In this document: positions 6,748 through 46,271 of the stretch, one piece after another
How the letters are laid out: every line of letters starts with the position of its first letter
Position numbering within the stretch: the stretch's first letter is position 1
Assembly (NCBI GenBank): GCA_019912885.1
Contig: JAIOHV010000229.1
Coordinates: 3,846 to 67,845, forward strand
Source of the DNA: a bacterium
Lineage (GTDB): Bacteria > Lernaellota > Lernaellaia > JACKCT01
Direction: 5' to 3'
DNA length: 64,000 nt
Translations under genes and position numbers: made by a program
Notes under the pieces: generated by a model
Told to the model about the DNA's origin: nothing
Seen by the model: the letters and a program-made list of their open reading frames with translations, nothing else
Databases searched by the model: none

Positions 6748-6754
6748 CGCGCGC

Positions 6755-9133: not shown

Positions 9134-9317
9134 TGCGATGCCGCCGGCGTCGCCGTTAACCGGCGCGCGCGCCGCCGCGGGTGAGGCAACGGGAGTGTCG
9201 GCGGTTCAGGAAATTTGCGTATCGCGACGGCGGTCAGGACGACCGCGCCGGCTACAGGAACGATTGCGGCGGCCGGAGATCCCGCGGGCAAGACTGCCCG
9301 GCGGGGCGAACGCGAAT

Positions 9318-10808: not shown

Positions 10809-10879
10809 CCGTTCCCATCTCCTGTGATGATGTACCGCTCATGATACGCGACCCGCGCCGCGCGGCAAAGGGCCGCAAT

Positions 10880-12001: not shown

Positions 12002-12239
12002 CCGGTGAATTGTCGCATACGGGGCGCCCGCGCGCGACCGACGCCATGCGCCGCGGAATTTTTCCGCGCGGACCCGCCGGCGCGATGGGAGTCTCGCGAA
12101 TACCGGCGTTCCCTCGACCCCAACCCCGGCATCGGGTAAAGTCGAGCGTCAGGTCCGATGGGATATGGCGCGCCGGGCAAAGGTTCGAAGAACGCATGAA
12201 TGACGAGCGGAAATTTCGCGCGCGAGGGGAGATCGCTTC

Positions 12240-13280: not shown

Positions 13281-13335
13281 CGTCGCGGATCGGCACGCAC
13301 GGCGCGAACCGCGACCCCGTTTTCGCGCAGGATCC

Positions 13336-14361: not shown

Positions 14362-14447
14362 GCGTCTTCATCCATGGGGATTATTCCGCCGCCATTACGA
14401 CCTGTGCGGCTTGTGTAGGCAAGAGCCGCCAAGTTACCTTGCGCGCC

Positions 14448-15683
14448 ATGATCCCCCGCCGCCGCACCACCACCTACCCGGGCATGACGCGACGGATCAT
14501 CTCCGCATATCTCAATGGCGAGGCCGTCGCCGGCGCGGCATCGGCCGAGTTCGAACGGCGCCTGGCCGCGATCGCGGGCACGCGCCACGGTATCGTCGTG
14601 TCGTCCGGCCGCTTCGGGCTGCAACTGATTCTGCGAAACATCGGCCTTGCGCCCGGCGCGGAGGTGATCGTGCCGGCGTACACGCTCACCGAGTTGCCGC
14701 ACGTCGTGCGGGATGCGGGATATACGCCGGTGCTGGCCGACATCGAAGCGCACAGCCTTAACGTCGGCCCGGAGCAGATCGCGAAAAAGATCACCGAACG
14801 CACGAGCGTGATCCTCCTGACGCACATGACCGGCGAGCCGGGCGACGTGGACGGCATTTTGCGCCTCGCGGCCGAGCGCGGACTCCTTGTGATCGAGGAC
14901 AACGCGCACGGCATCGGGGTGACGTTGCCCGACGGGCGACCGCTCGGCTCGCTCGGACGCGCGTCGTTTGTCTCGCTAGCCACGCGCAAGGTGGTCAACA
15001 CCTTCGCGGGCGGCGCCATTCTTACCAACGACGATGCCCTTGCCGCCAAAATTCGCGAGGCCGTCGCGTCCCTGCCGGTCACGCACAAAAAGCTTCTGAT
15101 CCGCGTCGTCACCTGTTCACTTGAAATATCGAGCCTCGGCCGTATTTTCGCGCCGATGACCGTCCGTCTTTTGCATTCTCCCCGGTTCAACAAGATGATG
15201 GTCGGGCTCTACCGTGCGATGCACCGCCGCGGGCGGGAGACGGAGTTCGGATACGCCAACCTGCAGGCGCTTCTCGGGCTGGACCAGTTCGATGTCCTTT
15301 CCGCGACCATTGCGCGGCGGCGAGCCGTCGCGAAGACCATCATTGACGGTCTAATGGAATCGCCGGACTTCGACCGCGAATACCTCGCCGCGCTGCGCGT
15401 ACGCGCGTTCGGATCCGGCGCGATCACGCACAACTTTTTTGAGCTGATCGTCATGGCGCACAATCCGTCCGCGCTGGCCGGGAAGTTGCTCAGGCACGGC
15501 GTGGATGTCGGTACGGGCGACGATGTTTGCGAGGATCTACCGCGCTTGTACGGCGCCGGCGGCGACTTCCCCAATCTGCGCCACGCCCTTGCCCACGCCG
15601 TGCAGCTACCGATCTGGTCGACGATGACCGAGCGCGAGGCGCGCGTCGTGGTGGCGCGGATTCTCGCGGCGGCGCACGACTGA
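14448..15683 (+). CDS. DegT/DnrJ/EryC1/StrS-family PLP-dependent aminotransferase (copy B)
   Basis: Translation MIPRRRTTTYPG...GAEVIVPAYTLTELPHV...LLTHMTGEPGDVDGILRLAAERGLLVIEDNAHGIG is a clear family match. An alternative start lies at 14439. Confidence 0.8.
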   Translation: MIPRRRTTTYPGMTRRIISAYLNGEAVAGAASAEFERRLAAIAGTRHGIVVSSGRFGLQLILRNIGLAPGAEVIVPAYTLTELPHVVRDAGYTPVLADIEAHSLNVGPEQIAKKITERTSVILLTHMTGEPGDVDGILRLAAERGLLVIEDNAHGIGVTLPDGRPLGSLGRASFVSLATRKVVNTFAGGAILTNDDALAAKIREAVASLPVTHKKLLIRVVTCSLEISSLGRIFAPMTVRLLHSPRFNKMMVGLYRAMHRRGRETEFGYANLQALLGLDQFDVLSATIARRRAVAKTIIDGLMESPDFDREYLAALRVRAFGSGAITHNFFELIVMAHNPSALAGKLLRHGVDVGTGDDVCEDLPRLYGAGGDFPNLRHALAHAVQLPIWSTMTEREARVVVARILAAAHD

Positions 15684-18826: not shown

Positions 18827-20064
18827 CCATCCACCGCGCCGCCCATCAGGTCGGCGGCAACTGCGTCGAGATCGAATACGACGGGCACCGTTTGTTGCTC
18901 GACGCGGGGAGTTCACTGGACGCGGACGAACATGCGGACGACATCCCGCCGACGCTCGACCGGAAGCGCCCGATCGACGGGCTCGTCATTTCGCATCCGC
19001 ATCTCGATCACTACGGCCTGCTCGATCGCCTTCCCGCCGATTGGCCGGTGTGGTCCGGCGCGCCGACCGAAATTCTCATGCGCCTCACGGCTTCCATCGG
19101 CCGCAAACGATATCGGCAGTCGTTTCGCCACTACCGAAGCGGCAAGGCGTTTCGCGTTGGGCCGTTCAAGGTCACGCCCTTTCTCGTCGACCATTCCGCC
19201 TTCGACGCGCACATGCTCCTCGTCGAGGCCGGCGGCCGGCGCATCTTTTACTCCGGCGATTTCCGGCGCACCGGACGCAAAAGCCTGTTGACGGAACGCC
19301 TCATGCGAAAGCCGCCGCGCGACGTGGACGTGTTGTTGCTCGAAGGAACGACGCTCGGCCGCACCGGCGATTTTCCGACGGAGACGGACATCGAGCAGCG
19401 TCTCGTCGATCTGCTGAAAGACACGAAGGGGCGGATTTTCGTGACGTGGTCGGCGCAGAACATCGACCGCACCGTGACGCTCTACCGTGCCTGCAAGAGG
19501 GCTCGCCGAACGCTTGTTCTCGACGTCTATGCCGCCGGCGTTCTCGATCGCCTGGCGACCGATTCTAGCAAGATTCCGAGGCTCGGCTGGCCCTGTTTGC
19601 AGGTCGTCGTCACGAAATCCATTGCGCGCATGTACAAGGATCGGGCGCGCGTGAACGACGCGGCATTCGTGGATCGCTGCGCGACATCCGGCTTTGCGTT
19701 TGGCGCCGACAAACTCGAATCCCGCGCGCGAAACGTCATCATGCTCCGCCCGTCGCTTTGGAAGGACTACGCGCGCAAAGGCGTCACGCTGACACCGCAT
19801 GACGGCTGGGTATTTTCGATGTGGTCCGGCTACGAAAAGAAAACCGATTACGCGGAATTGCGGACCGCTTTCGAGTCCGCCGGTGCGCGCCTTGAACGCA
19901 TCCACACAAGCGGCCATGCCGCGCCGGACGACCTCGTCGCGTTTGCCGACGCTGTCGCCCCGCGACATCTCGTGCCGATCCACGGCTTTGACTGGGATCA
20001 ACACCTGCACCGCTTCAAAAACGTGAAGCGCTTGCGCGACGGCGAGCGATTCGCGATCGTTTAG
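18814..20064 (+). CDS. Metallo-beta-lactamase fold nuclease of the beta-CASP type (RNase J/Artemis-like)
   Basis: The MBL motif ISHPHLDHYG (HxHxDH) and the beta-CASP C-terminal signature RIHTSGHAAPDDL...PRHLVPIHG are both present. The start is uncertain (TTG 18814 or nearby). It overlaps the stop of the upstream gene. Confidence 0.75.
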   Translation: MVFLTIHRAAHQVGGNCVEIEYDGHRLLLDAGSSLDADEHADDIPPTLDRKRPIDGLVISHPHLDHYGLLDRLPADWPVWSGAPTEILMRLTASIGRKRYRQSFRHYRSGKAFRVGPFKVTPFLVDHSAFDAHMLLVEAGGRRIFYSGDFRRTGRKSLLTERLMRKPPRDVDVLLLEGTTLGRTGDFPTETDIEQRLVDLLKDTKGRIFVTWSAQNIDRTVTLYRACKRARRTLVLDVYAAGVLDRLATDSSKIPRLGWPCLQVVVTKSIARMYKDRARVNDAAFVDRCATSGFAFGADKLESRARNVIMLRPSLWKDYARKGVTLTPHDGWVFSMWSGYEKKTDYAELRTAFESAGARLERIHTSGHAAPDDLVAFADAVAPRHLVPIHGFDWDQHLHRFKNVKRLRDGERFAIV

Positions 20065-20320
20065 ACGCGCCTCTCATCATCGCGCCGCGAACCCGAAACC
20101 TCCCCGGCCCTGACCCTCCTTCGCGCCGCCTGCCGTGCGGGCCGAACATTTCAATCGAGCGGGTCAAAAGCAGCGTCCGCGGCCCGTCAACGTCCGCCGG
20201 CAACGCGGCCGCCGATCGTGATTTCCTTGTAAGTGGCGTGTAAGTGCGGGCGCCTACTCTCGCGTGGAACCGTAGAGCTCGACACCCCGAGCCGCACGGC
20301 CAAAGGGAGGGCCGCCCGCG

Positions 20321-21160
20321 ATGAGCCATCCGTTTTCTCTACGTCGAACACGGCTTTCGATCGCCGCCGCACTCGCGGTTTTTGCCGTCGCGATCCCGGA
20401 CGCCGGCGCCGCGACCGGCGAGCAGAATTTCACCAATTACTGCTTCGCGTGCCACACGATCGGCGGCGGCAAGCGCGTCGGCCCGGATTTGAAGGGCGTC
20501 ACCGAGCGCCGCTCCCACGAGTGGCTCGTCAAGTTCGTCGCGTCGTCGCAGTCGGTCGTCAAGAGTGGCGACCCGGACGCCGTCGCGCTGTTCGAGGAAT
20601 ACAAGATCGAAATGCCGGACGCGCCATACACCGCGGACGAGATCAAGGAGATCCTCGCCTACATCGCCACCGGCCCGACGACGCAGGCCTTCGTGCCGCT
20701 GCGGGCCACGACGCCCCAAGACATCGAGCGGGGCCGGGCGCTGTTTCAGGGCCACACGCGCCTTGCCCAAGGCGGTCCCGCGTGCAACTCGTGCCATCAC
20801 GTGAAAAACGACGCGGTGATCGGCGGCGGCATCCTGGCCAAGGATCTCACGGAGGTGTTCGCGCGCATGGGCGCGCCGGGCATCAACGCGATTTTGGGCA
20901 AGCCGCCGTTTCCGGTCATGGAGGAAGCGTACCGGAACAGGCCGCTTTCCGAAGACGAGGTATTCGCCCTGGTCGCCTTTCTGGAAGACGCCAACCGGCA
21001 GCAGGCGTTTCAGCAGCCCAACGACTACGGATTCAAGCTGTTCTACAGCGGCTCGGCCGGGTTCGTGCTGCTCCTCGGGATCTACGGGATCATCGGGCGC
21101 AAGCGGAAAAAGCTCTCGGTGAACCACAAGATCTTTGACCGCCAGACCAAAAGCCAATGA
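20321..21160 (+). CDS. narC: Diheme c-type cytochrome, NarC-like, with signal peptide and C-terminal TM anchor
   Basis: There are two CxxCH motifs (CFACH, CNSCH), an N-terminal signal peptide and a C-terminal hydrophobic helix. It lies directly upstream of narG, as in the Thermus thermophilus narCGHJIK1K2 operon. The GGGAGGG SD sits before the ATG. Confidence 0.75.
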
Positions 21161-21224
21161 CCGGGAACCGCGCGAACGAAGCGATGACGCCGCCGCCACG
21201 GACAAGAACGAGGAAGGGAAAACC

Positions 21225-24842
<3,618 letters not shown>

Positions 24843-24856
24843 ACAGGGGCACAAAA

Positions 24857-26407
<1,551 letters not shown>

Positions 26408-26409
26408 AT

Positions 26410-27102
26410 ATGTCCCTGGCGCATTACGACTCTCTTGCGGGCCTGGTTGCCTATCCCGGTCCCGGATTCGAGGCCGAACTTTCACGGGCGATCGCGCTTC
26501 ATTCCGAGCTTCACCCGGGCACGGCGCGGGAAATCGAGGCGTTTCGCGAGCAACTGCCTCTCGACGACCTTGTCGCGTTGCGGGAACTGCACACGCGGAC
26601 CTTCGACGTTCAGCCCATCACCACGCTCGACATCGGTTACACGCTCTTTGGCGAGGATTACAAGCGGGGAGCGCTCCTTGCGAATCTGAGCGCGGAACAC
26701 ACGCGCGCGGGCAACGACTGCGGCGCGGAGCTCGCCGACCATCTGCCGAACGTGCTGCGCCTGCTGCCGAAAATGGCGGACGCCGCGCTGCGCGAGGAGT
26801 TTGTCCGCCTTTTGCTCGCGCCCGCGTTGCGGGAAATGATTCGCGACTTCGAGCCGTCGCGTCTCGCCAAAAAAGAGGATCTGTATCGAAAGCACCACAA
26901 GACCATCATCGCCGTCGCGACGGGGCCGGCCCGCACCGCGTGGCGCCACGCGCTCGAGGCGATATTCGAGCGGCTGCGCGCGGATTTCGCGTTGGACGAC
27001 GGCTTTTCGGACGACATGGCTTCCCGGTTTGCCGGCGCGCTTGGCACCGAACTGGCCATCGAGGACGGCGGAACCTGCGTCAACAACGGGAGAGGTGCGT
27101 GA
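26410..27102 (+). CDS. narJ: Nitrate reductase molybdenum-cofactor assembly chaperone
   Basis: The protein is 230 aa (MSLAHYDSLAGLVAYPGPGFEAELSRAIALHSE...) and lies in the canonical position between narH and narI. Confidence 0.8.
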   Translation: MSLAHYDSLAGLVAYPGPGFEAELSRAIALHSELHPGTAREIEAFREQLPLDDLVALRELHTRTFDVQPITTLDIGYTLFGEDYKRGALLANLSAEHTRAGNDCGAELADHLPNVLRLLPKMADAALREEFVRLLLAPALREMIRDFEPSRLAKKEDLYRKHHKTIIAVATGPARTAWRHALEAIFERLRADFALDDGFSDDMASRFAGALGTELAIEDGGTCVNNGRGA

Positions 27103-27830
27103 TGAATTTGCCGAACGCGTTTCTGTTCGCGGGGCTGCCCTACGCGGCGGCGCTGATCTTTCTCTACGGAACGATTCAGCGGTACCGCTCGAAGGGTTTC
27201 AAGGTCACCTCGCTTTCGTCGCAGTTCCTGGAGGGGAACGCGCTGTTTTGGGGCACCCTGCCCTTTCACATCGGAATCCTCGTAGTCTTCTGCGGTCACC
27301 TGACGGCCTTTCTCATCCCGCGCGGACTTTTGCTCTGGAACAGCCACCCGGTGCGCCTGATCGTATTGCAGGTCTGCGCGTTCGCGTTCGGCCTGAGCGT
27401 CGCGGTGGGTTTGCTTGGTTTGATTTATCGCCGGCTGACCAACCGGCGGGTGCGGATGGTGACGACGCGAATGGACGTTGCCATCGAGGTTCTTCTGCTG
27501 GCGCAGGTGATCCTCGGCCTGTGGATCGCGCTCGGATATCGCTGGGGTTCGTCCTGGTTCGCCTCGGATCTCACGCCGTATCTCCGATCGCTGTTTGCCC
27601 TCAATCCGAACATCTCGGCCGTGAGCGCGATGCCCGTCGTGGTCAAACTTCACATCACCGGCGCGTGGCTCATCCTGGCGATCTTCCCGTTTACGCGCCT
27701 TGTGCACATCCTGGTGGCCCCCCTGCACTACATCGCCCGGCCGTACCAGCGCGTGATCTGGAACTGGGACCGCAAGGCCGTGCGGGATCCGGCCACGCCC
27801 TGGAGCCGGGTGCGCCCCCGGAACAACTGA
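27102..27830 (+). CDS. narI: Respiratory nitrate reductase gamma subunit (cytochrome b)
   Basis: Translation MNLPNAFLFAGLPYAAALIFLYGTIQRYRSKGFKVTSLSSQFLEGNALFWGTLPFHIGIL... shows the five-TM NarI pattern with heme-ligand histidines. Its ATGA overlaps the narJ stop. Confidence 0.85.
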   Translation: MNLPNAFLFAGLPYAAALIFLYGTIQRYRSKGFKVTSLSSQFLEGNALFWGTLPFHIGILVVFCGHLTAFLIPRGLLLWNSHPVRLIVLQVCAFAFGLSVAVGLLGLIYRRLTNRRVRMVTTRMDVAIEVLLLAQVILGLWIALGYRWGSSWFASDLTPYLRSLFALNPNISAVSAMPVVVKLHITGAWLILAIFPFTRLVHILVAPLHYIARPYQRVIWNWDRKAVRDPATPWSRVRPRNN

Positions 27831-27905
27831 GCCGGGAAAGCAAATGCGCGCGCACGAACATCGTAAGGTCCGTACCCTCCGGTTTGCCGGATAGGGAGTC
27901 CGATC

Positions 27906-29414
27906 GTGGAAGAACGAGCGACGGCGACCTCGCACAAGGTGCTGGCCCTTAACACGCTCGCGTTTGCGGTCTGCTTCGCGGCCTGGATGCTCAACGGCGT
28001 CCTGGTGACGTTCCTGTCGATCAACCAGGTCTTCCCGTGGGGTCCGGTCGAGATCGGCTGGCTGATGGGAATTCCGGTGTTGACCGGATCGGTCCTCCGG
28101 CTCCCCGGCGGCATCCTGACCGACCGGTACGGCGGCAAGCCGGTGTTCGGCGCGTTGCTGCTGCTGAGCGCCGTGCCGATGTTTCTGCTGTCGCGGGCCG
28201 ACGGTTTCCAGGCGTTCGCGCTTTGCAGCTTCGGTTTCGGGCTGACGGGCGTCGGCTTTTCCGTCGGAATCGCGTTCACATCGGTCTGGTATCCGAAAAA
28301 GTTCCAGGGGACGGCGCTCGGAATCTTCGGGGCCGGAAACGCGGGGGCCGCGGCAACAACGCTACTGGCGCCGACGCTCTTGAACAGGTTCACCGACAAC
28401 GGCGCAAACCTCGACGGCTGGCGGCAGCTCCCGATCGTTTACGCGGCGACGCTCGTGGCGATGGGGCTGATCTTCCTCATCTTCACCACAAACAAGAAAC
28501 CGGCCAGCTCGGTCAAGACGCTTGGCGCGATGCTATCGCCGCTTCGGAGCGCCCGCGTCTGGCGTTTCGGGCTTTATTATTTTCTGGTCTTCGGATGTTT
28601 TGTCGCCTTTTCGCAGTGGCTCGTCCCGTATTTCGTGAATGCCTACTACCTGCCGCTTGGCGTGGCCGGGTTGTTTGCGTCCCTGTTCAGCTTCCCGTCG
28701 GGCGTGATCCGCGCGGCGGGGGGATGGATGTCCGACAAGTGGGGCGCCCGCCGGGTGATGTATTGGGTCCTCACGGCGTCGTGCCTTATCAGCTTTGCCG
28801 TGACGATTCCGCGCATGGAGATTCTCTCCCCGGGCAAGGGGATCATGGCCACGCGCCCGGGCACGGTCACCGCGGTATCCGGGCAAAGCCTCAGCGTGGA
28901 CGGCCTGATCTATCCGTTGATCGAGAAGCCGACCGCGTTTGCCGACCTGGAATCGGGAATCCTCGTTTTTCCGAGGAAGGAAGTCTGGCAGGAACCCGCC
29001 GTCGCCGTCGGCCAGACCGTCAATCGCCGGGAGCTGCTCGCGAAGGGCGTCACCCGGATCTTTTTCCAGGCCAACGTCTGGATCTTCGCGGGACTGGTGA
29101 TGCTGCTGGGCGCCGTTTGGGGCATCGGGAAGGCGGCCGTGTACAAATACATTCCGGACTATTTTCCCGACGAGGTCGGCGTCGTCGGCGGCATGGTCGG
29201 GGTGCTCGGCGGCCTTGGCGGTTTTTTCTGCCCGATCATCTTTGGATATCTGCTTGAAGGCACGGGACTCTGGACGAGCTGCTGGATGTTCATGTTCGTT
29301 CTGTCCCTGACGTGCCTGGTCTGGATGATGCGGACCGTGCGCCGGCTCGACGCGAAAGCCGCCCCGCGCACGTACCGGCACCTCGAACACCAAACAGACG
29401 CGGGAATGGCATGA
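27906..29414 (+). CDS. narK: Nitrate/nitrite transporter, MFS (NarK-type), copy 1 with about 75-aa soluble insertion
   Basis: It is 12-TM MFS with NarK-type G-rich motifs. An extra hydrophilic segment (SPGKGIMATRPGTVTAVSGQSLSVDG...VNRRELLAKG) is absent from the second copy. Confidence 0.8.
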   Translation: MEERATATSHKVLALNTLAFAVCFAAWMLNGVLVTFLSINQVFPWGPVEIGWLMGIPVLTGSVLRLPGGILTDRYGGKPVFGALLLLSAVPMFLLSRADGFQAFALCSFGFGLTGVGFSVGIAFTSVWYPKKFQGTALGIFGAGNAGAAATTLLAPTLLNRFTDNGANLDGWRQLPIVYAATLVAMGLIFLIFTTNKKPASSVKTLGAMLSPLRSARVWRFGLYYFLVFGCFVAFSQWLVPYFVNAYYLPLGVAGLFASLFSFPSGVIRAAGGWMSDKWGARRVMYWVLTASCLISFAVTIPRMEILSPGKGIMATRPGTVTAVSGQSLSVDGLIYPLIEKPTAFADLESGILVFPRKEVWQEPAVAVGQTVNRRELLAKGVTRIFFQANVWIFAGLVMLLGAVWGIGKAAVYKYIPDYFPDEVGVVGGMVGVLGGLGGFFCPIIFGYLLEGTGLWTSCWMFMFVLSLTCLVWMMRTVRRLDAKAAPRTYRHLEHQTDAGMA

Positions 29415-36650: not shown

Positions 36651-37283
36651 TCAACCGACAAGACCGTTGCGCACGGCGTACTGGATGATTTCGGCGTTGG
36701 AAGCGAGCGACATCTTTTCGAGGATGCGTGTCCGGTACGTACTCACGGTTTTGACGCTGAGTTGGAGTCGTTCGGCGATCTCCGACACGGATTTGGCCGA
36801 CGCCAACAGCAGAAAGACCTCGAGCTCGCGGCCGGAAAGGGTTTCGTGCGGCATCTCGCCGGGCTTTTTGGCCAGGTGATCGGCAAGCTGTTCCGCGAGT
36901 GTTTCCGAGAGATAGCGCCGTCCCTTGCGGACGGTTCGAATGGCCTTGAACAGCTCCGTATCCGCGGCTTGCTCTTTTGTGAGGTAGGCGGAGGCGCCGC
37001 CGGCGAGCGCGCGGACGACAAACTGCCGCTCGCTGTACATCGACAACACGATCACCGGCAGGCTCGGCCGCGCTTCCTTGATTTGCGGCAACGCGGCCAG
37101 GCCGTTTTCGGCCCCGAGCGCGACATCCAGGATCACGACATCCCACGGCGCCGACCTCACCTTCCGGAGCAATTCCGCGCACGTCGTCGCTTCCCCGATC
37201 GTGACGCCCGGAAACTCCAGCTCGAGGATCCGGCTCAACCCGGATCGCACGATCGCGTGGTCATCGGCGATGAGAATCTTCAT
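36651..37283 (-). CDS. NarL/FixJ-family response regulator (REC + LuxR-type HTH)
   Basis: Translation MKILIADDHAIVRSGL...VVILDVALGAENGL...LSGRELEVFLLLASAKSVSEIAERLQLSVKTVSTYRTRILEKM is a family match. Its ATGA overlaps the upstream kinase. Confidence 0.85.
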   Translation of the reverse strand: MKILIADDHAIVRSGLSRILELEFPGVTIGEATTCAELLRKVRSAPWDVVILDVALGAENGLAALPQIKEARPSLPVIVLSMYSERQFVVRALAGGASAYLTKEQAADTELFKAIRTVRKGRRYLSETLAEQLADHLAKKPGEMPHETLSGRELEVFLLLASAKSVSEIAERLQLSVKTVSTYRTRILEKMSLASNAEIIQYAVRNGLVG

Positions 37284-39157
37284 GGTCCGCCATCCGGACC
37301 CGCCGCGCCATCCGGCGCTATCGGCGCCTCCCGGGGCACTTCAACCTCGATCGTCGTGCCTTCTCCGGGCCGTCCCCGCACGGCGAACGAGCCGCCGAGA
37401 AGGTGGACACGCTCGCGCATGCCCAGGATGCCGAGCGACTGGGGCCCTTCGGCGTCCGCGGGCTCGATGCCCTTGCCGTTATCGTGAATCGTAAGCGCAA
37501 GAGTCGCTTCGTTGCCCATAAGGTCAACGCTCACTTCGGTTGCGTCGGCATGTCGGATGACGTTCGTCAAGGCTTCCTGCACGATCCGGAACACGGTGGT
37601 CGATACCAGCCCGTCGATGGGCTCCGAAACATTGCCGACATTGAGAATGATCGCAAGACCGGAGTTGGCCTCGCGATCGCGCACAAGCCAATCGACGGCC
37701 GCGGCAAGCCCCAGCCGATCAAGCACCGGGGGACGCAGTTCCGATGAAATCCGCCGGACGGAATCGATGGCGCGGTTGATCTGCTCGCCCATCTTGACGA
37801 TCGCCTCATCGCCGGCCAACGAGTCCGGCCGGCGCGAGCACACGCGGCAGACGGTCGAAAGTTCCATCTTCAGGCCGGTCAGAATCTGGCCAAGTTCGTC
37901 ATGAAGTTCGCGCGCGATCCGGCTTGCTTCTTCGTCGCGCGCCGCCTGGAGTCGATGAGAAAGGGCGCGAAGCCGCCCCTGGGCTTCGTGAGCCTCCTTT
38001 TGCCGGGTGGCCAAGGCGTCGGCCATGGCGCTGAACGAAACGGCAAGCTCCCGCAACTCCCCGTGACTTCCGGGCAACGGAGCCCGCGCCGAGAGGTCGC
38101 CGGCGCCGAACCGTCGCACCGCCCTCGTCAGCGCGCGCAAGACACGCAGCACGGAGAACTCAGCCGCGAAAATCGCCGAGGCAATCGCGAAAATCGTCAC
38201 CAGGATGAGTCCCACCAAGGTGCGGTAGAAGGCGTGATTCGCCGTCCCTTGCACGCGTTCGTACGGCAAGCCGGCGACGACGAAGATACCGGGGATGCCT
38301 TCCATCGGCGTCGCCACAAAAAATCGCGACATCGCGTCGGGACCGATATCGATGACGGCTCCGTGCGGGCGGCCCAACGCCTGGGCGAGGGCGGGATTGG
38401 GTTGCTGTTGCTCGGCGGCGAGAAGGCCCGTATCCGCACCCGAACGCGCGAGCACGTGCCCGTCGCGGTCCGTGATCAGCAGCGAGTAGTCCGCCGGCAG
38501 ATTCGCCTGCTCGGCCAGTTGATCGAGCCAGCCGAGTTCCACCGCCACGAACGCAACGGCGCAAGGCGCTTGATCCGGGCCGCGAATCGCATGGGCCAGG
38601 TGCAGGACGGGTCGGTCGACGAAGCCGACGACATACGTCCCCGTCTCGACCTCGATTGAGCCGAGTGCGCGCTCGAAGGCGACGTTCGTCTTCAGGCTCG
38701 AATGCCGGATGTCCGCCGCGCTGCACACAACCTCGCCGTCCGGATCGGCAACGCCGATATTCGCGAACTGGGGAAATCCGTTGAGAAGCGCGGGTAGGTA
38801 TTCCGGACAGACCGGCGCCGCCACCGGCGGCCCGCCTTCGCACGCGAGCACGTCGCCGAGGCGACGAAGGAGGTTGCGGCCGCCGTTGAGCTGATGGGCG
38901 TGTTCGCGCGACGCCAGGTTTCCGAGATGGCGCGCCTCGGTTTCCATGCGTTCCAGAGCCGCCACGCGCTCCCGGGCCGCCGCAAGAAAAATGAACAGGA
39001 CCGCCGGTACGGTCGCGAAGCCGATGAGCAATATCAGGCGGCCGCGTAGGGTAAGGAAGACTTTGACGAACCGCCGCGTCGTCGATAGCTGTTTTCCGCT
39101 GACCTCGCGGTTTTCCATCGGCTCACGGGACGCGCCAGGCCGGCGCGGCGCGGTCAT
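37280..39157 (-). CDS. NarX/NarQ-class sensor histidine kinase (TM-periplasmic domain-TM-HAMP-HisKA_3-HATPase)
   Basis: The H-box is RIARELHDELGQILTGLKMEL (HisKA_3). The ATPase boxes are QEALTNVIRHA...HDNGKGI. Two TM segments flank an about 280-aa periplasmic domain. Confidence 0.8.
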   Translation of the reverse strand: MTAPRRPGASREPMENREVSGKQLSTTRRFVKVFLTLRGRLILLIGFATVPAVLFIFLAAARERVAALERMETEARHLGNLASREHAHQLNGGRNLLRRLGDVLACEGGPPVAAPVCPEYLPALLNGFPQFANIGVADPDGEVVCSAADIRHSSLKTNVAFERALGSIEVETGTYVVGFVDRPVLHLAHAIRGPDQAPCAVAFVAVELGWLDQLAEQANLPADYSLLITDRDGHVLARSGADTGLLAAEQQQPNPALAQALGRPHGAVIDIGPDAMSRFFVATPMEGIPGIFVVAGLPYERVQGTANHAFYRTLVGLILVTIFAIASAIFAAEFSVLRVLRALTRAVRRFGAGDLSARAPLPGSHGELRELAVSFSAMADALATRQKEAHEAQGRLRALSHRLQAARDEEASRIARELHDELGQILTGLKMELSTVCRVCSRRPDSLAGDEAIVKMGEQINRAIDSVRRISSELRPPVLDRLGLAAAVDWLVRDREANSGLAIILNVGNVSEPIDGLVSTTVFRIVQEALTNVIRHADATEVSVDLMGNEATLALTIHDNGKGIEPADAEGPQSLGILGMRERVHLLGGSFAVRGRPGEGTTIEVEVPREAPIAPDGAAGPDGGP

Positions 39158-39571: not shown

Positions 39572-39608
39572 AAAAACGAATCCCCGGGGGAATTTCCCCG
39601 GGGATTCA
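39572..39608 (-). terminator. Intrinsic terminator downstream of tRNA-Asp
   Basis: A GC-rich dyad (gaatcccccggggg aattt ccccggggattc) is followed on the minus strand by a U-run (A5 at 39572-39576 on plus). Confidence 0.6.
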
Positions 39609-39623
39609 AGGACTTTGGTCGAT

Positions 39624-39697
<74 letters not shown>

Positions 39698-39915
39698 ATC
39701 AAGGCGCACGGCGGGCCGCGTGCCAAGGCGCGTATTGTAGATAGAGCCGCGCCGGTGTCAAGCAAATCCGCACCGATTCAAGGCGGGAATGACATGGGCT
39801 TTTCCCCGGGCATGTTTCGCCGCGCGTCGGGTTCGTCTCGCGGCGCGAGACGCGACGACGTTTCGCTCTTAGTCGAACGTTGCGTGTGTCGCGCGCGTTT
39901 TCTACGATCCGCGCC

Positions 39916-42051
39916 ATGTTCGACAAAATTTTTCGCGGATGGGTTTGGCGCGCGGCGATCGCGATTGCGTGCGCTTTGATTCTCACCGTAATAGCCGGCG
40001 CGGCAATCGAGCGCGCGGTCGCCGAGGACGACAAGGGCGATTCGCCCCCCTCGTCCGAAGCGACCCCGACGCCGACGCCCACCCCTTCACCCGCTGCGTC
40101 ACCCGCGCCGGCGGCGGAATCGACGCCGGCGCCCGATGCGACGCCGGTGGACGCAGAGGCCACGCCGGCCAAACCTCCCGACGATGGTCTGCCGCCGATC
40201 GAGGCGTATCTGAACATCCGCCGCGCGGTGGGGCCGACGTGGTCGCCCGACGGGCAGAGCCTCGTGTACCTCTCGAACGATACGGGCACCTATCAGGCGT
40301 GGAAGATCGCCGCGGACGGCGGAGAGCCCGTGCGTTTGACGCAGTTTGAAAACACGATCGGCTTCGTGGAATACCTGCCGAACGCGCGCCGCATCTTGTT
40401 CGGCATGGACGAAGGCGGCAACGAGCGCACGCAGATCTACATCATGAACGACGACGGCATGGACGTCGTTCGCCTGACCTCCGACGAAAACGTCATCCAC
40501 ACGCTCGGCGCGGTGGATCGCGACGGCAAGCGCATTGCCTACGCGAGCAACGCGCGCGACCAGCGCTACTTCGACGTGTACGTCATGGATCTCGCCACGC
40601 GCCAATCGCGCCTCGTGCTGCAGCAGGATGCGTACAACGAGGCAGCCGCGTTTTCGCCCGACGGAAAATTCGTCGTCGTGTCGACGTGGGAGTCGAACTT
40701 CAACAACAACCTCACGCTCGTCGAGATGCCGTCGCTCGCCGATCAGCTCCTGACTCCGCACTCCGGATGGGCGACGTACACCGACATCGCGTGGCCGCCG
40801 GGAGCGGACGCGTTCTATCTTATATCCAACCTCGGGCAGGATTGGTCGAAGGTCGCAACGCTCGAACCAAAGGAGCGCGAGCTCGCCTACAAGGGCACGG
40901 GCAAGTGGGATGCGCAGACGCTGGCGATCTCGCGCGACGGCTCGCGCCTCGCGTACACACTGAACGTCAATGGCCAATCGACGCTGGCGCTTGTCGATCT
41001 CAAGCAGGGCAAGCCGCTGCCCGTACCGGCGATCGAGGAGGGCATCATCGGCGGGCTCGAGTTTTCGCCGGACAGCAACAAGCTCGCGTTTCACTTCAGC
41101 TCTCCCACGCGAACGCACAACGTCTGGATCGCGGACCTGGCCGCGAACACCGCGGCGCCGCTGACCGACGCGAGCCTCGCGGGGATCGACCCGGCAACGT
41201 TCGTTTCCCCGCGCCAAGTTCGCTATCGCGGCCACGACGACCTTGTGATCCCGGCGTTCCTCTACGTTCCGCCCGGCGAGAGCGACGGCCCGCGCGGTGT
41301 CGTCGTGTACGCGCACGGCGGACCGGAGGCGCAGGAGCGGCCGGATTTTTCGGGGCTATTTCAATATCTGCTCTCGCGCGGCATCGCGATCTTCGCGCCG
41401 AACGTTCGCGGCAGCACGGGGTACGGCAAGACCTACGAACATCTGGACGACAAGCGCCTGCGCCGCAATTCCTTGCGCGACTACGCGGCGGGGGTGGAAT
41501 TTCTGAAATCGGCTGGCGGGTTCGACGCGGAAAAAATCGGCATCTTCGGCGGCAGCTACGGCGGATACGTCGTGCTGGGGAGTCTTGCGGAATATCCCGA
41601 GTTATTCGCGTGCGGGGTTTCGGTTGTCGGGATTTCGAACTTCGTCACGTTCCTGGAGAACACCGGCGCATGGCGGCGAACGATCCGCGAGGCGGAATAC
41701 GGGACGCTCGCCGAGGACCGCGAGTTCCTGGAATCGATCAGCCCGACAAACCAGGTCGATACCATGCGCGCGCCGCTCATGGTCATCCAGGGCGCGAACG
41801 ATCCGCGCGTGCCGGCGAGCGAATCCGATCAGATGGTCGCCGCGCTGCGCGAGCGCGGGCGGGAAGTGTCCTATCTCCTCTATCCCGACGAGGGGCATGG
41901 CCTCGCCAAGCTGAAAAATCGCCTGGACGCTTACCCGAAGGTCGCGGATTTTCTACGGAAATGCGTCGCGGACCCGGCTGGAGCTCTGAAAACGGAATCG
42001 GATGTAGAAAAATCGTCGAATTCCGCCCCGGATGCGTCCACCCTGCCCTGA
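39916..42051 (+). CDS. S9-family serine peptidase (prolyl oligopeptidase / dipeptidyl-aminopeptidase-like; beta-propeller + alpha/beta hydrolase)
   Basis: An N-terminal TM/signal segment is followed by a Pro/Thr-rich linker, a propeller region and a C-terminal hydrolase domain with the nucleophile motif GGSYGGY and a ...DEGHG... His box. An alternative TTG start lies at 39880. Confidence 0.85.
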   Translation: MFDKIFRGWVWRAAIAIACALILTVIAGAAIERAVAEDDKGDSPPSSEATPTPTPTPSPAASPAPAAESTPAPDATPVDAEATPAKPPDDGLPPIEAYLNIRRAVGPTWSPDGQSLVYLSNDTGTYQAWKIAADGGEPVRLTQFENTIGFVEYLPNARRILFGMDEGGNERTQIYIMNDDGMDVVRLTSDENVIHTLGAVDRDGKRIAYASNARDQRYFDVYVMDLATRQSRLVLQQDAYNEAAAFSPDGKFVVVSTWESNFNNNLTLVEMPSLADQLLTPHSGWATYTDIAWPPGADAFYLISNLGQDWSKVATLEPKERELAYKGTGKWDAQTLAISRDGSRLAYTLNVNGQSTLALVDLKQGKPLPVPAIEEGIIGGLEFSPDSNKLAFHFSSPTRTHNVWIADLAANTAAPLTDASLAGIDPATFVSPRQVRYRGHDDLVIPAFLYVPPGESDGPRGVVVYAHGGPEAQERPDFSGLFQYLLSRGIAIFAPNVRGSTGYGKTYEHLDDKRLRRNSLRDYAAGVEFLKSAGGFDAEKIGIFGGSYGGYVVLGSLAEYPELFACGVSVVGISNFVTFLENTGAWRRTIREAEYGTLAEDREFLESISPTNQVDTMRAPLMVIQGANDPRVPASESDQMVAALRERGREVSYLLYPDEGHGLAKLKNRLDAYPKVADFLRKCVADPAGALKTESDVEKSSNSAPDASTLP

Positions 42052-42129
42052 TGTGCGGTCAAAAAACGGCTGTGATTTTGGTTAGATAGCTCATATTGCT
42101 AAATAGGACCATTGTGGTACAAATAAGCC

Positions 42130-42263
42130 AAGTCCAGTGGCTCCTTGAAAAAGGAGTCACGGACCCTTCCCTCCTTTGGACGTGTTGAATCGAAGTCCCT
42201 CCTTCTGAAAGACACGACCCAAGGTGACATCGCCAGGCCCCGGAAAACCGGGGCCCTTTTTTT
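42130..42263 (+). ncRNA. Candidate small RNA (about 135 nt) ending in an intrinsic terminator
   Basis: The region is AT-richer and non-coding. A putative sigma70-like promoter is present (TTGCTA ... TACAAA near 42096-42130). Internal hairpin ggctccttgaaaaaggagtc and C/U-rich stretches are present (cccttccctccttt, gtccctccttctg). It ends in the terminator at 42236-42263. Confidence 0.3.
42236..42263 (+). terminator. Rho-independent terminator
   Basis: The hairpin ggccccgg-aaaa-ccggggcc is followed by T7 (42257-42263). Confidence 0.7.
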
Positions 42264-42403
42264 GGGATTTTTCGGGATTTCGACGAAATCTTCGAGGCGA
42301 TACCGTCGATGCGTGCCAGGAATCGAAACCGCCAACGCGCCCACAAAAGCAAACCCCGCAAACTTTCGTTCACGGGGTCGCTTTCTGCCGACGGGCCGTT
42401 TTA

Positions 42404-42474
42404 AGTCATGCCCAGGACCGGGCTATACAGCCTTCGCTGCAGTGAGCCACAGGACGCAGCATGTAACGCTTCAT
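42404..42474 (-). CDS. Small ORF (22 aa, MKRYMLRPVAHCSEGCIARSWA) with strong Shine-Dalgarno
   Basis: On the minus strand, AGGAGGAAAGCACC-ATG gives a canonical SD with 8-nt spacing. The peptide has two Cys and no homology call is possible. Confidence 0.3.
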
Positions 42475-42774
42475 GGTGCTTTCCTCCTGTATTTGCGGCG
42501 TTGATCGCCGCAAGGCAATTTCAAGCAATTTAAGGACGCGTGTGGTCAATGTCAACCGATCCCGCCCGGTGCAAGGCGCGTTTCGCGCGGCCATCCGCGG
42601 CCGACCAAACACCGCGCCTCACGAGTTTTATCGTGTCAAATCGCGTAAAAATTTGCCGTCAGGGGGTTCACGGCCTGGCACGCGGCGGCGGCGTCTAGGA
42701 ACGCGGCGCTTGTTTGGATATGATTGCTTCTCGTTTCTCCCGGAACTACGCAAGCATGTGTAAGGAATATCACG

Positions 42775-44622
42775 ATGTTTCGCTGCGCCCCTGCCATTCT
42801 CGTCCTGTTTTTGCTGTTCGCCGCCCCGTTTGCCGCCGGCTGTTCCTGCGGCGACGATGACACCGGCGACGACGACCTGGGCGATGACGACACCGGCGAC
42901 GACGACATGGACGACGACGATACCGACGACGACGACGTGGACGAAGACATGGACGATGACGACGCCGTTGACGACGATTCGGCCGACGATGACACCGATC
43001 CTCTCGATCGGGGAGGCCTGATCCCCGGCCCCGCCGATCCCGGTCACGATGCGGCGCTGGAGCTTTTGGCGGCGCGCTACGCGCAGCAGTTCCACGGGTT
43101 CATGACCGTACCGTTCGGCATGTCTCTCGAGGCCTATATCTCGGATCCGGACATGCGTGCCGAGATCGACGACTGGCTCGAAAACTCCGACCTCGACGAG
43201 ACGTTCGAGGAATATTCCGGCATCCACCCGTTCGACAACGCCGACGCCTACGGCGAGCACGGCGACCTCGGCATGTTCGGCGGCATGGCGTCAATCGGCG
43301 ACGTGTTCCGCTATGCGCTCGCGCGCGACCGCGGCGAGACGTTCGAGATCCCGATCGCCGAGTTGCGCCAGAACGTCATCGAGCTGATGGACGCGCTGCA
43401 CGTGTGCGTCGAGATCACGGGAGAGCCGGGCGTGGTGGTGCGCGGCATCCGCAAGATCGCCGAACCCGGACCGTTGCAGACGACCGAGCCGCTGTTCGAT
43501 ATCAACGGCGATCCGTATCCGCCGAACAAGGACGACAACGTCTGGCGCGAGGACAATTCCGGCGCGCATCCCGACTTCATCTGGGAAGACAACACGAGCA
43601 AGGACCAGCTCGACGGGTACATCTTCTCGATGGGCGCGGTGTGGGACATCGTCGCGGACGATCCCGATATTCCGCAGGCGAAAAAGGACGCGCTTATCGC
43701 CGACGCGGCGGCCATCGGCGACATGCTGATGGAGGTCGCGCCGGAGACGGGGCTGGATCTGTCGATTCGCGACGCGGACGGCCGCCTGACGCAATTCCAC
43801 GATATTCACCCACGCGACATGGGCTCGTTCGTCATCCCCGAATTTCTCGGCGTCGGCAACGGCTTCAACGCGCTGATGGCGCTTGGCATCGTCAAGACGA
43901 TCGCGTTCATCACGGGCGAGGAGCGGTTCAGGGATTTCTTCGCGGAGATGATCGAGGATCGCGGGTTCCTTGACTACGTGGACCAGACGGTCTTTCTGAC
44001 CAACAACGGACCGCTGACGAACTGGTCGAACGTCAACATGATGTTCGTGGCGATTTATCCGCTGCTGCGCTACGAGGCCGATCGCGATTTGCGCGCGTAT
44101 TGGCAAAAGGTGATGGCCGACGATCTGTGGGGCAGCCGCTTTTCGGACTGGGCCGTGTCCAACTCGCATCAGGCGTTTTTCGGCTTGATCTGGGCGTCGT
44201 TCAAAAACGGGGCGACGGACGACGCGGAGGCCGATACAGCCGCGTACGATCTCGCGGGCTTCAAGACGCCGCCGTACTGGCACGCGCCCAAAATCGTGAA
44301 CTGCGACGATGACGAGCTGGCCGCGGGCGAGTGCCTGGCGATCGACGGCACCACGATCATCACGCTTGCGGGTTACACGGATACGCACGGCGTCTTCCAT
44401 GCGTATCCCACGCACACCGGCGATCCGATTTCAACGGACCCGCTGCCGCGCACGATCCGGCCGCCGAGTAACTTCGACTGGCGTTCGCCGCCGTATGACG
44501 TCAACGGCGGCGGCGGCGTGCGCCTGAATCCCGGCGGCGATTTCCACGGCGCATATTGGCTTGGCCGGTTTATGCGACGCTCGAACGACACCGCGATCAA
44601 CGTCTCGCCGCGGGCGTGGTGA
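42775..44622 (+). CDS. Lipoprotein with N-terminal poly-Asp linker and large unassigned C-terminal domain
   Basis: Translation MFRCAPAILVLFLLFAAPFAAGC|SCGDDDTGDDDLGDDDTGDDDMDDDDTDDDDVDEDMDDDDAVDDDSADDDTD... shows a lipobox (FAAGC) followed by about 55 aa that is more than 70% Asp. The remaining 540 aa is unassigned (possibly alpha-helical hydrolase-like). Confidence 0.7.
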   Translation: MFRCAPAILVLFLLFAAPFAAGCSCGDDDTGDDDLGDDDTGDDDMDDDDTDDDDVDEDMDDDDAVDDDSADDDTDPLDRGGLIPGPADPGHDAALELLAARYAQQFHGFMTVPFGMSLEAYISDPDMRAEIDDWLENSDLDETFEEYSGIHPFDNADAYGEHGDLGMFGGMASIGDVFRYALARDRGETFEIPIAELRQNVIELMDALHVCVEITGEPGVVVRGIRKIAEPGPLQTTEPLFDINGDPYPPNKDDNVWREDNSGAHPDFIWEDNTSKDQLDGYIFSMGAVWDIVADDPDIPQAKKDALIADAAAIGDMLMEVAPETGLDLSIRDADGRLTQFHDIHPRDMGSFVIPEFLGVGNGFNALMALGIVKTIAFITGEERFRDFFAEMIEDRGFLDYVDQTVFLTNNGPLTNWSNVNMMFVAIYPLLRYEADRDLRAYWQKVMADDLWGSRFSDWAVSNSHQAFFGLIWASFKNGATDDAEADTAAYDLAGFKTPPYWHAPKIVNCDDDELAAGECLAIDGTTIITLAGYTDTHGVFHAYPTHTGDPISTDPLPRTIRPPSNFDWRSPPYDVNGGGGVRLNPGGDFHGAYWLGRFMRRSNDTAINVSPRAW

Positions 44623-46271
44623 AAAACGCGCGCGAGGACGCGGCTTTCGCGCCGAAAACGCGCGCGGTCGTCGCGATCGCCGTCGTGCTCGGCGCGGTGG
44701 CGATGGCGCATCTGGTCGAGCGCGCGATCAACCGAAAATACAACGGCGACGAGTTGCAGCACGCGCACGCGGTGTATCGCGTCGCACAAGGTGATCTACC
44801 GTTCCGCGATTTTTTCGAGCACCACCCGCCCGCGCTTTACTACGCGTCCGTTCCGCTCTACGAAATTTTCGCGCGCGATCCGCGCACGATGACGGCGCTG
44901 CGTTTCCTGATGCTCGCGTGCGTCGCCGCGACATTCGCCGCGCTGTTTGCGACGGCGTATCGCACCACGCAATCCGTCGCGCTCGCCGGCGTCGCGGGCA
45001 TCGCCTTTTTGTGGTGCACGGTCGTGCTCGACAAGGGCATCGAGTTTCGCCCCGACGGTCCGGCGACCGCGCTCATCGCGTGGGCGATTTATTTTCAGGC
45101 GACGAGCGGCGACACGCGACGGCGCTCGATCGTCGCGGCGCTTTTCTGGGGCCTGGCGCTGACGTTCACGCCCAAAGCCCTGTTCGCGTTTGCCGGCGCG
45201 ACGCTGTTTGAGATCGCGCGGAACGCCTTTGGTAGACGCAATGATGCGTCCGTACCCGCTCCCTTATCCTTCGCTTCCGCTCAGGACAAGCTCACGCGGT
45301 TTCAAACGCGAGAGATAGCGGTCTGGTTTGTCGCGGCCGCCGTTCCCGCGCTGCCGTGGGCGGTCGGTTACGCGCTCGCCGAGCCGCGGTCGATCCCCGA
45401 CCCGTGGTACGCGCCCGAGTTCGTGCGGGCGCTGCCCGGCGCGCTGCCCGCGATGGTCGATCGCCTGATCTTCTGGAACGCGAACTGGGCCAACACGTTC
45501 AGCCCGTTCGCGACGTTCGCGGACGTAGCGCGCGAAAATGCGGCGCTGGTTTTGTTTTCGATACTCGGCGTCGCGCTCGCGTTGCGCACCTTTGCGCAAA
45601 CTCGCGTCGCCGGTCCGCCGCTGCTATTCGCGCTCGTGCTCGCGTGCGGCGGCGCGGGGGCGTTCGCCGTGCACGTTCCCTACGCGCAATACTGGCTGTT
45701 GCTCGTCCCCGCGGCGGCGCTCGCCGCGACGCACGCCATCCACATTCTCGTGACGCGAGCGAATCTCGCCTTCATCGCCCGGGCGTACGGCATCCCCGAT
45801 CCGCCGGACGATCTTGAGTCCGCCTCCCCACGGATCGCGCAAGGACGACGGGGGACGGGGCTATTGGTCGGCGCGGCGCTGATCACGTCGCTCGGCATGG
45901 GCACGCTGGCGCGTCCGCTGCAAGGCCCGGCGGAATCGAACGCGAATCAGCGCGCGGCGATTTCGTTTTTTGTGAACGAGGTCGATCCGGCGTGGCCGGT
46001 GATGGGCGCGTGGACGGGCTGGGCCGCGTTCAATCCCACCGCGTCGTACTACCACTTCCTGCATCTGGAGGTGCGCAAGATGTTGCCGTTGCCGGTGCAA
46101 CGGGACGGCGGGCTCGCGGCGCTATCGCGCGCCAGGCTCGTGATCCGCGACGAGGAATTCGATCGGCTGCCGCGCGAAGTGATCGAAACGCTCGAACGCG
46201 ACTTCGTGCCGTTCACCGGGCCGATCTGGGCGTCACGGGACGTCGTTTCAAGGAAGAGACTGGAAGGCTGA
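44619..46271 (+). CDS. Polytopic membrane protein, GT-C/PMT_2-like (putative glycosyl- or mannosyltransferase)
   Basis: More than 10 TM helices are present. The first extracytoplasmic loop carries ...YNGDELQHAHAVYRVAQGDLPFRDFFEHHPPALYY..., a DE-containing motif typical of the ArnT/PMT GT-C superfamily. A GTG start overlaps the upstream stop (GTGA). Confidence 0.55.
   Translation: MKNAREDAAFAPKTRAVVAIAVVLGAVAMAHLVERAINRKYNGDELQHAHAVYRVAQGDLPFRDFFEHHPPALYYASVPLYEIFARDPRTMTALRFLMLACVAATFAALFATAYRTTQSVALAGVAGIAFLWCTVVLDKGIEFRPDGPATALIAWAIYFQATSGDTRRRSIVAALFWGLALTFTPKALFAFAGATLFEIARNAFGRRNDASVPAPLSFASAQDKLTRFQTREIAVWFVAAAVPALPWAVGYALAEPRSIPDPWYAPEFVRALPGALPAMVDRLIFWNANWANTFSPFATFADVARENAALVLFSILGVALALRTFAQTRVAGPPLLFALVLACGGAGAFAVHVPYAQYWLLLVPAAALAATHAIHILVTRANLAFIARAYGIPDPPDDLESASPRIAQGRRGTGLLVGAALITSLGMGTLARPLQGPAESNANQRAAISFFVNEVDPAWPVMGAWTGWAAFNPTASYYHFLHLEVRKMLPLPVQRDGGLAALSRARLVIRDEEFDRLPREVIETLERDFVPFTGPIWASRDVVSRKRLEG

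Follow-up and report, generated by a model that had tools for sequence, protein, structure and literature searches.

The Region Downstream of an S9 Peptidase Gene Carries a Candidate Small RNA

The DNA analyzed here is a stretch of 64,000 nt from contig JAIOHV010000229.1 (GCA_019912885.1), which we call the window; all coordinates are positions in this 64-kb window, and copies of the element found elsewhere are numbered as loci L001 and so on. On the plus strand, an open reading frame (ORF) for an S9 peptidase, which starts at 39880 or 39916 and stops at 42051, is followed by a stretch for which the original prediction had proposed a small RNA (sRNA), either acting in trans or derived from the 3' untranslated region (3'UTR) of the peptidase gene. 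As stated there, this stretch is poorer in G+C than its environment (49–51% at 42000–42299 compared to ~63% in the surroundings), and it carries no ORF with a Shine-Dalgarno (SD) sequence on the plus strand: the ORFs that are present have TTG or GTG starts without SD and continue past the terminator. Considering the locus together with its homologues, we assign a probability of roughly 0.6 to the reading that the sequence from about 42130 to 42263 (+) represents a conserved, independently transcribed, non-coding sRNA of ~134 nt, which occurs only in a FEN-1099/Lernaellota-like subclade.

The features of the window copy are listed in Table 1. The internal hairpin reported in the original prediction, ggctccttgaaaaaggagtc at 42139–42158, does exist and forms the core of a longer stem-loop at 42132–42164, but it is specific to the window copy and is not conserved. 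Also both of the reported CCUCC motifs are present. The octamer CCCTCCTT occurs at 42169–42176 and again at 42197–42204, 28 nt apart on the same strand, and the 64-kb window contains four matches to it on both strands together compared to 0.76 expected, whereby none of 100 shuffled sequences reached four; thus, two matches at a distance of 28 nt are not a matter of chance. However, only the second motif (42196–42205) is conserved among the homologues. The first one looks like a duplicated seed, as it presents a second full CCCUCCUU module, and at its place the other copies have a CUCCCC or CCCCCC tract. The intrinsic terminator was predicted correctly; its stem consists of eight G-C pairs with −17.8 kcal/mol. 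The most conserved element, a 23-nt core between seed and terminator, had been overlooked. As a whole, the RNA from 42129 to 42263 (135 nt) folds with −59.8 kcal/mol (z = −5.3), and none of 200 shuffled sequences folds as well.

Table 1. Positions of the sequence features in the window copy, and the corresponding upstream boxes of the homologous loci.
Feature	Position	Strand	Remarks
Inferred sRNA transcript	42130..42263	+	~134 nt; 5' end inferred, 3' end = U-run
Degenerate CRP/FNR-like palindrome TTAGATAGCTCA	42082..42093	+	homologues have TGAY-N4-RTCA at this place
−10-like hexamer TACAAA	42118..42123	+	23–24 nt after the box end in 6/6 copies
5' stem-loop GUCC.AGUGGCUCCUU-GAAA-AAGGAGUCAC.GGAC	42132..42164	+	contains the hairpin of the original prediction
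First C/U-rich motif CCCUUCCCUCCUUU	42164..42177	+	specific to the window copy; mean unpaired probability 0.65
Conserved seed UCCCUCCUUC, anti-SD-like	42196..42205	+	UCCCUCCUU invariant in 6/6 copies
Linker	42206..42212	+	7 nt here, UGAAAGA; 6, 8 or 10 nt elsewhere, CA-rich ACACAAAG
23-nt core CACGACCCAAGGugACAUCGCCA	42213..42235	+	the two lower-case positions are UG here, AA in the other five copies
Intrinsic terminator	42236..42263	+	hairpin GGCCCCGG-AAAA-CCGGGGCC at 42236–42255, C, then T7 at 42257–42263
Box	L001		TGATTCAAATCA
Box	L002 and L010		TGACGCAAGTCA
Box	L008		TGATCTAGGTCA
Box	L023		TGACGTAAATCA

Six Copies With a Common Anatomy Occur in One Subclade

The first homologues came to light in the neighbourhoods of peptidase orthologues, where the 3' half of the element recurs near the peptidase gene in L001 (GCA_027493875.1) and L002 (GCA_020845895.1). 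Further copies came from an exact-pattern scan with ACGACCCAAGGNNACATCGCC against the GTDB species representatives and JGI metagenomes. The GTDB scan yielded 14 places, 5 of them in the family (among them L013, which is the L001 locus, L008, L010, and L015), whereby L008 is a second copy in the metagenome-assembled genome (MAG) of L001/L013, and L010 and L015 are two contig ends of another MAG. From the JGI metagenomes nine places were obtained, one of which belongs to the family (L023). The other matches of the pattern lie in coding regions of unrelated bacteria, in a number as expected by chance, and were discarded. Overall, there are six copies in five genomes/contigs of one subclade, i.e., five copies in four genomes/contigs in addition to that of the window. 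The contigs of L010 (1–54, −) and L015 (1–69, +) from MAG binchicken_co200_86 both break off within the sRNA, with an overlap of 45 nt. This points to an assembly that was interrupted at a repeated element, with more than one copy in the genome, or else to strain variation.

In order of the strand, each copy presents UCCCUCCUU, a linker of 6–10 nt, the 23-nt block CACGACCCAAGGnnACAUCGCCA, a G+C hairpin, and a U-run. Invariance is found for seed and core (for the core in five copies, with two positions different in the sixth, that of the window), while flanks and 5' domain are at random-level identity (19–36%) and the adjacent peptidase proteins are only 55–58% identical. The seed is preceded in every copy by a structured domain of 50–70 nt, of which neither sequence nor shape is conserved; within this domain a second C-rich tract is found in four homologues (CUCCCC in L001 and L023, CCCCCC in L002, UCCCCC in L010). 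All complete homologues (L001, L002, L008, L023) end in a terminator hairpin plus U7–9, whereby the stem length varies and an inner G-C pair of the window copy is flipped to C-G in L001. The comparison thus shows a transcription-unit-like anatomy that is conserved over the six copies, in the order upstream island, 5' GU, variable structured domain, UCCCUCCUU, linker, 23-nt block, and terminator. Five further copies, their indels, and the divergent contexts of two copies therefore support the proposal of an sRNA gene that has its own terminator and an anti-SD-like seed.

The linker lengths also bear on the question of whether the region might be a short protein-coding gene on either strand. On the minus strand, GAAGGAGGGA strongly resembles an SD, and there are overlapping ORFs of 81 and 104 aa. 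However, linkers of 6, 7, 8, and 10 nt correspond to 0, 1, and 2 modulo 3 and break the frame between seed and core on both strands, so that the sequence is not protein-coding on either of them, and the minus-strand sequence past the SD look-alike is not conserved. Similarly, a repeated or mobile DNA element, such as a miniature inverted-repeat transposable element or an attachment site, would agree with the two copies in one MAG and with the two contigs of another MAG that end inside the element. But there are neither terminal inverted repeats nor target duplications, the 64-kb window contains a single copy, the flanks of the copies are unrelated outside the promoter island, and the terminator U-run is present on the plus strand only. 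A coding or mobile origin is thus very improbable.

With respect to the host lineage, a protein with 100% identity to the peptidase is encoded in a MAG labelled "bacterium." The next relatives (55–58% identity) belong to MAGs labelled Deltaproteobacteria, one of which is named FR-FEN-1099, and the identity to Candidatus (Ca.) Alcyoniella australis and Ca. Lernaella stagnicola amounts to 49–51%. FEN-1099 corresponds to the candidate phylum Lernaellota, which is known from metagenomes only (PMC9324843). An nhmmer profile of the 3' part gave a single copy in the window and none in L003, L004, and L028–L034 (including Ca. Lernaella stagnicola), and in more distant relatives the element was found neither at the S9 peptidase nor at the OPT orthologue loci. 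Because it is absent from these loci, the family is confined to the subclade. One of these loci, L029, belongs to a more distant relative and has, close to its peptidase orthologue, an intergenic region of 830 nt with a long imperfect inverted repeat (ggatggaatttgtgcttataggttttgaaaggacattt ... aaatgtcctttcaaaaccctaaatgacgagcttttccatcc; 6760–7145), which is unrelated to the sRNA.

A CRP/FNR-Like Palindrome Is Located Upstream of the Candidate RNA

The original prediction had assumed a sigma70-like promoter. This could not be confirmed, as a consensus scan of the plus strand did not reveal any sigma-70-type promoter for the window copy, nor for L002 and L008, and no −35 element was found in these scans. 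Upstream of the RNA the copies cannot be aligned (pairwise identity 19–36%) apart from one island, which is a palindrome of the CRP/FNR type followed by a −10-like hexamer. The hexamer reads TACAAA in the window and TAAAGC, TAAGGT, TAAAGT, TAGGGT, or TACAAG in the homologues, and 6–8 nt past it all copies have a conserved GU (42132–42133 in the window) with GG six bases later. In the window box, the half-sites are TTA and TCA, so that 5/6 half-site bases fit, and the Y and R positions are mismatched as well. All six columns of TGA and TCA (6/6) agree between four independent homologues, compared to 1/53 flanking columns (Fisher p 1.6e-7), although this test used an alignment that was anchored on the box itself. 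The TGAY-N4-RTCA pattern is rare, with two matches in the 64-kb window.

If the hexamer is taken as −10, the centre of the box lies ~41.5–42.5 nt upstream of the inferred start, i.e., at about −41.5 to −42.5, in the arrangement known from class II promoters that CRP/FNR-family proteins activate. The palindromes of such promoters are related to TTGAT-N4-ATCAA or TGTGA-N6-TCACA and overlap the −35 position. The promoter therefore looks activator-dependent rather than plain sigma-70. Reading the right half-site, CATAnT, as the −10 element was rejected, since no consistent −35 is present at 16–18 nt; the constant distance of 23–24 nt from the box to the conserved TA fits better with the activator reading. 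In Escherichia coli, the FNR consensus is TTGATnnnnATCAA, the site is located at −41.5 ± 4 in 19 of 23 activated promoters, and in front of the sRNA gene fnrS it is found at −42.5 (PMC3688515).

The window also encodes a respiratory nitrate reductase. The narG gene (TIGR01580, 1422 bits) is followed by genes for a narJ-like protein and a NarK transporter (region 20233–29414), and a NarXL-like two-component system is located at 36651–39157 (−); a narH-like protein was not recognized among the ORFs chosen in the nar region. The sequence TTGACTGGGATCAA at 19988–20001 is the only perfect TTGAY-N4-RTCAA of the window and lies 245 nt upstream of an ORF that precedes narG and overlaps its start. By chance, 64 kb would contain about 0.2 such sites, whereby it has to be considered that this is a single site that was spotted post hoc. 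Together, the nar genes and the perfect palindrome are consistent with the presence of an FNR-type regulator in this organism. Between this FNR-like box and the start of the nar operon, a third plus-strand CCCTCCTT is found at 20114–20121, which may belong to a long 5' leader as an anti-SD element.

The Genetic Context Argues for an Own Transcription Unit

The element follows directly after the S9 peptidase gene in the window, L002, and L010, and in L001 it is one gene away. Such an arrangement would be expected if it were only a 3'UTR of the peptidase mRNA, i.e., a stabilizing or regulatory and possibly processed element without an own promoter, and in L002 the peptidase stop codon and the element are indeed not separated by another terminator. 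However, the gene that separates both in L001 is an EamA-type gene on the minus strand, and no S9 peptidase is encoded near the element in L008 and L023. In L008 an OPT oligopeptide transporter gene is oriented divergently to the element and a P-type ATPase gene convergently, and in L023 a multihaem cytochrome gene precedes the element, which faces a gene for an S15 X-Pro dipeptidyl peptidase. Two copies are thus divergent from their neighbours (L001, L008), and therefore the RNA should constitute its own transcription unit and not only a 3'UTR. In addition, the upstream island is conserved at a fixed spacing from the 5' GU, the peptidase orthologues of L003, L004, and L028–L031 lack the element, and in the window a weak terminator-like hairpin (42054–42074) is present just 3' of the peptidase stop codon. 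Hence, from the 3'UTR-derived option of the original prediction, an additional source of the RNA remains at most, and we regard a 3'UTR as the sole origin as quite unlikely.

The downstream gene differs at every locus. In the window it is a mini-ORF on the minus strand followed by a gene for an Asp-rich lipoprotein, in L002 an SLT transglycosylase gene, in L001 a gene for an unknown protein of 186 aa at a distance of 440 nt, and in L008 and L023 convergent genes. This lack of a common downstream gene stands against a cis-acting leader or attenuator of the downstream gene, in which AAGG and CCUCC would form alternative structures before the terminator. Although UCCUU and AAGGA are able to pair, with 5 bp formed in the folds of L008 and L023, and the element is terminator-ended like attenuators are, a conserved antiterminator pairing was not seen. 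Moreover, Rfam 15 returned no cis-regulatory family and thus also no match to a cis-element of the downstream gene, which the original prediction had named as an observation that would speak against an sRNA. The leader explanation is close to refuted.

A link of the RNA with peptide catabolism is hinted at by its neighbours, since four copies are located beside or one gene from an S9 peptidase gene and the remaining two adjoin the OPT peptide transporter (L008) and the S15 dipeptidyl peptidase (L023) genes. However, Lernaellota genomes are rich in peptidase and peptide transport genes (PMC9324843), which weakens this link. The association with OPT is not kept in three relatives.

Predicted Accessibility of Seed and Core

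In the window copy, the seed is placed in a hairpin loop with an unpaired probability of 0.67, compared to 0.13–0.46 in the homologues. For the 23-nt core the relation is inverse, with 0.45 in the window and 0.70–0.78 in the homologues, whereby the lower value of the window copy results from an upstream CCUUUGGACGUG that is complementary to the core. The masking of the seed that is predicted in L001, L002, and L010 would be due to a purine tract near the 5' end. Besides the window copy, only L001 has a notable fold z-score (−4.3), whereas the rest lies between −0.85 and −1.95. As most homologues are unremarkable in this respect, thermodynamic stability is not a trait of the family, and from five divergent sequences no conserved secondary structure of the 5' domain could be established.

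The strong conservation of the core raises the question of whether the RNA might primarily bind a protein, with the 23-nt block, and perhaps the C/U tract too, serving as the site of an RNA-binding protein for which the RNA would be a sponge or partner. The block is conserved more strongly than the 9-nt seed, it is predicted to be single-stranded in the homologues, it is located directly before the terminator, and no complementary target was seen in the window. In model bacteria, the chaperones Hfq and ProQ bind just before the terminator. On the other hand, each RNA contains only one block, whereas known sponges have repeated sites, and no candidate protein is known. A CsrA sponge was considered and rejected, because the CsrA-like CAAGGA is present only once and reads CAAGGU in the window copy. 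Furthermore, protein binding is compatible with pairing of the seed. As an explanation in place of the sRNA reading, it seems rather unlikely to us.

Proposed Mechanism and Its Weak Points

If the region indeed encodes an independently transcribed sRNA, transcription would start ~42 nt downstream of the centre of the CRP/FNR-type palindrome, from a class II promoter without −35 element, and the RNA would be made in response to the signal of the regulator, which might be oxygen, nitrogen oxides, or a nucleotide. The C/U-rich seed, which resembles the 3' end of 16S rRNA, could then pair with GGAGG-type SD regions of mRNAs and block translation initiation, so that the RNA would act as a repressor in trans; the window copy would have a second, duplicated seed for this purpose. 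For the peptidase mRNA itself, no recognizable SD was found at the start of the gene, and thus no SD is available there for pairing with the seed. The 23-nt block next to the terminator may be a second pairing site or a platform for binding of a chaperone. Its conservation is too strong for a mere spacer; in most copies it is predicted to be single-stranded, and it directly borders on the terminator. Where the S9 peptidase gene is located upstream, read-through transcripts would probably end at the same terminator. A more far-reaching version of this model, in which the RNA is a lineage-specific riboregulator that is induced by FNR/CRP, damps translation broadly by mimicking the anti-SD end of 16S rRNA, docks with its 23-nt block a novel RNA chaperone or partner in a lineage for which none is described, and serves peptide catabolism under anoxia, is speculative, and we consider it unlikely as a whole.

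Several observations weigh against the sRNA reading. On the side of transcription, the 5' end is derived from promoter geometry alone, the window box (TTAG-ATAG-CTCA) is degenerate with 3/8 specified positions off, the alignment behind the half-site test was anchored as described above, and the hexamers are poor −10 elements in which only TA is invariant. Furthermore, no gene of the CRP/FNR family was detected among the ~40 window proteins that were scanned against Pfam. On the side of function, a duplex scan of the window did not reveal a target for the core but only energies of ~−28 kcal/mol, which are background for G+C-rich DNA, and the perfect conservation of 23 nt beside the terminator exceeds what a typical seed would need. 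The seed is predicted to be largely paired in L001, L002, and L010 (unpaired probability 0.13–0.26), three homologues have unremarkable fold z-scores (−0.85, −1.5, −1.95), and the five independent sequences did not provide any usable covariation for the 5' domain.

Further Features of the Window

The S9 peptidase has an N-terminal extension of ~90 residues (39880–40160, +), which consists of a signal or anchor followed by a P/A/T/E-rich tract. Alignments with homologues cover 81–86% of the query and begin at residue 89–94, leaving the extension unaligned. Upstream of the gene, a tRNA-Asp (GTC) is encoded on the minus strand (39623–39698) between the two-component system and the peptidase, and on its 3' side there is a perfect palindrome, ccccggggg-aatttc-ccccgggg (region 39580–39698, −). 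In L001, L028, and L029 the peptidase orthologue adjoins a tRNA/EF-Tu/L33/SecE/NusG cluster.

Facing the sRNA, a mini-gene is located on the minus strand at 42352–42555, which looks separate from it. It comprises a sigma-70-like promoter (TTGACA-17-TAAATT, 42555..42527), a strong SD (CAGGAGGAAAG) followed by an ORF of 22 codons at 42476..42408 (MKRYMLRPVAHCSEGCIARSWA), and a terminator-like hairpin at 42379..42352. A 68-aa ORF that overlaps the mini-gene has no match in Pfam. The two large proteins encoded further downstream at 42724–44622 and 44556–46271 (+) match neither Pfam nor NCBIfam; the first one has a lipoprotein-like signal ending in Cys and then ~50 residues that are nearly all Asp (DDDTGDDDLGDDD...). 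At the other end of the window, positions 871–15683 encode four radical-SAM proteins (one with a B12-binding domain and one with SPASM), two DegT-type aminotransferases, two LPG-synthase-TM proteins, and a YfhO-like membrane protein. This cluster is probably a locus for modification of cell-envelope glycans or lipids.

Comparison With Known sRNA Families

Rfam 15 was searched with gathering thresholds on the whole window, permissively with E <= 10 on the region 41500–43200, and with E <= 1 on four homologous loci. Only chance-level matches to the terminator hairpin were obtained (sX12 and asX2, with 17–19 bits compared to cut-offs of 70–106). Nevertheless, the candidate RNA resembles several described sRNAs in its organization.

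The cuckoo RNAs of Alphaproteobacteria (alpha-r14/RSs0680/CcsR1-4; RF02344) likewise combine a C/U-rich, anti-SD-like motif with variable stems. In these RNAs only the motif is conserved in sequence, and there are often several copies per genome (PMC4615179). The window copy comes closest to this type, as it has two modules of the motif, of which one is placed in a hairpin loop. However, the motif is UCCCUCCUU here and not CCUCCUCCC, and the cuckoo loop motif CCTCCTCCC does not occur at 42052–42263 with up to one mismatch. Two to four adjacent hairpins that present the motif, as in cuckoo RNAs, are not formed, and the loop placement is found in the window copy only; in the homologues the conserved motif is either unpaired between domains or paired with the 5' end. 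Moreover, the family described here has the additional invariant 23-nt block and an unrelated host lineage, and the RF02344 model (cuckoo/ar14) does not match at E <= 10 in the window region nor at E <= 1 in the four homologous loci.

With FnrS, the FNR-activated sRNA of Enterobacteria, the candidate shares a length of ~120–135 nt, a palindrome that would be centred near −42, the lack of a strong −35, and an intrinsic terminator, and the window genome also has FNR-type targets in its nar genes. FnrS represses mRNAs by pairing at ribosome binding sites (PMC3688515). In contrast to FnrS, FNR-like control of the candidate RNA is predicted from a DNA motif, which is degenerate in the window copy, and there is no similarity in sequence or in Rfam. 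CyaR from Enterobacteria is CRP-dependent, and its seed binds the SD of targets such as ompX and can be masked intramolecularly (PMC11795201). Such masking is also predicted for some of the homologues here, but again similarity in sequence or in Rfam is absent; neither the FnrS nor the CyaR covariance model gave a match. Since motif, structure, and Rfam models all fail, the RNA is not a member of the cuckoo, CyaR, or FnrS families, and it is a new family of a well-known kind.

The second C-rich tract in the 5' domain of the homologues (CUCCCC or CCCCCC) is also reminiscent of C-rich sRNAs from Firmicutes. RsaE/RoxS has C-rich unpaired motifs that target G-rich ribosome binding sites. Similarly, C-rich motifs such as the UCCC loops of RNAIII and related sRNAs of Staphylococcus aureus target G-rich ribosome binding sites (PMC4615179). 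Sequence, structure, and phylum are unrelated, and there is no Rfam match.

If the sRNA reading is true, this would be the first cleanly delimited candidate for a regulatory RNA in FEN-1099/Lernaellota, as none is described in the literature that was searched, and its 23-nt block would provide a handle for finding an RNA-binding partner or the main target. To a specialist, a gene of this type would come as expected rather than as a surprise. Pairing at ribosome binding sites is thought or shown for cuckoo/CcsR, CyaR, FnrS, and the staphylococcal UCCC-motif RNAs (PMC4615179, PMC11795201, PMC3688515). The RNA described here would add another independent case of a C/U-rich, anti-SD-like sRNA and thus support the idea that this solution has evolved repeatedly.

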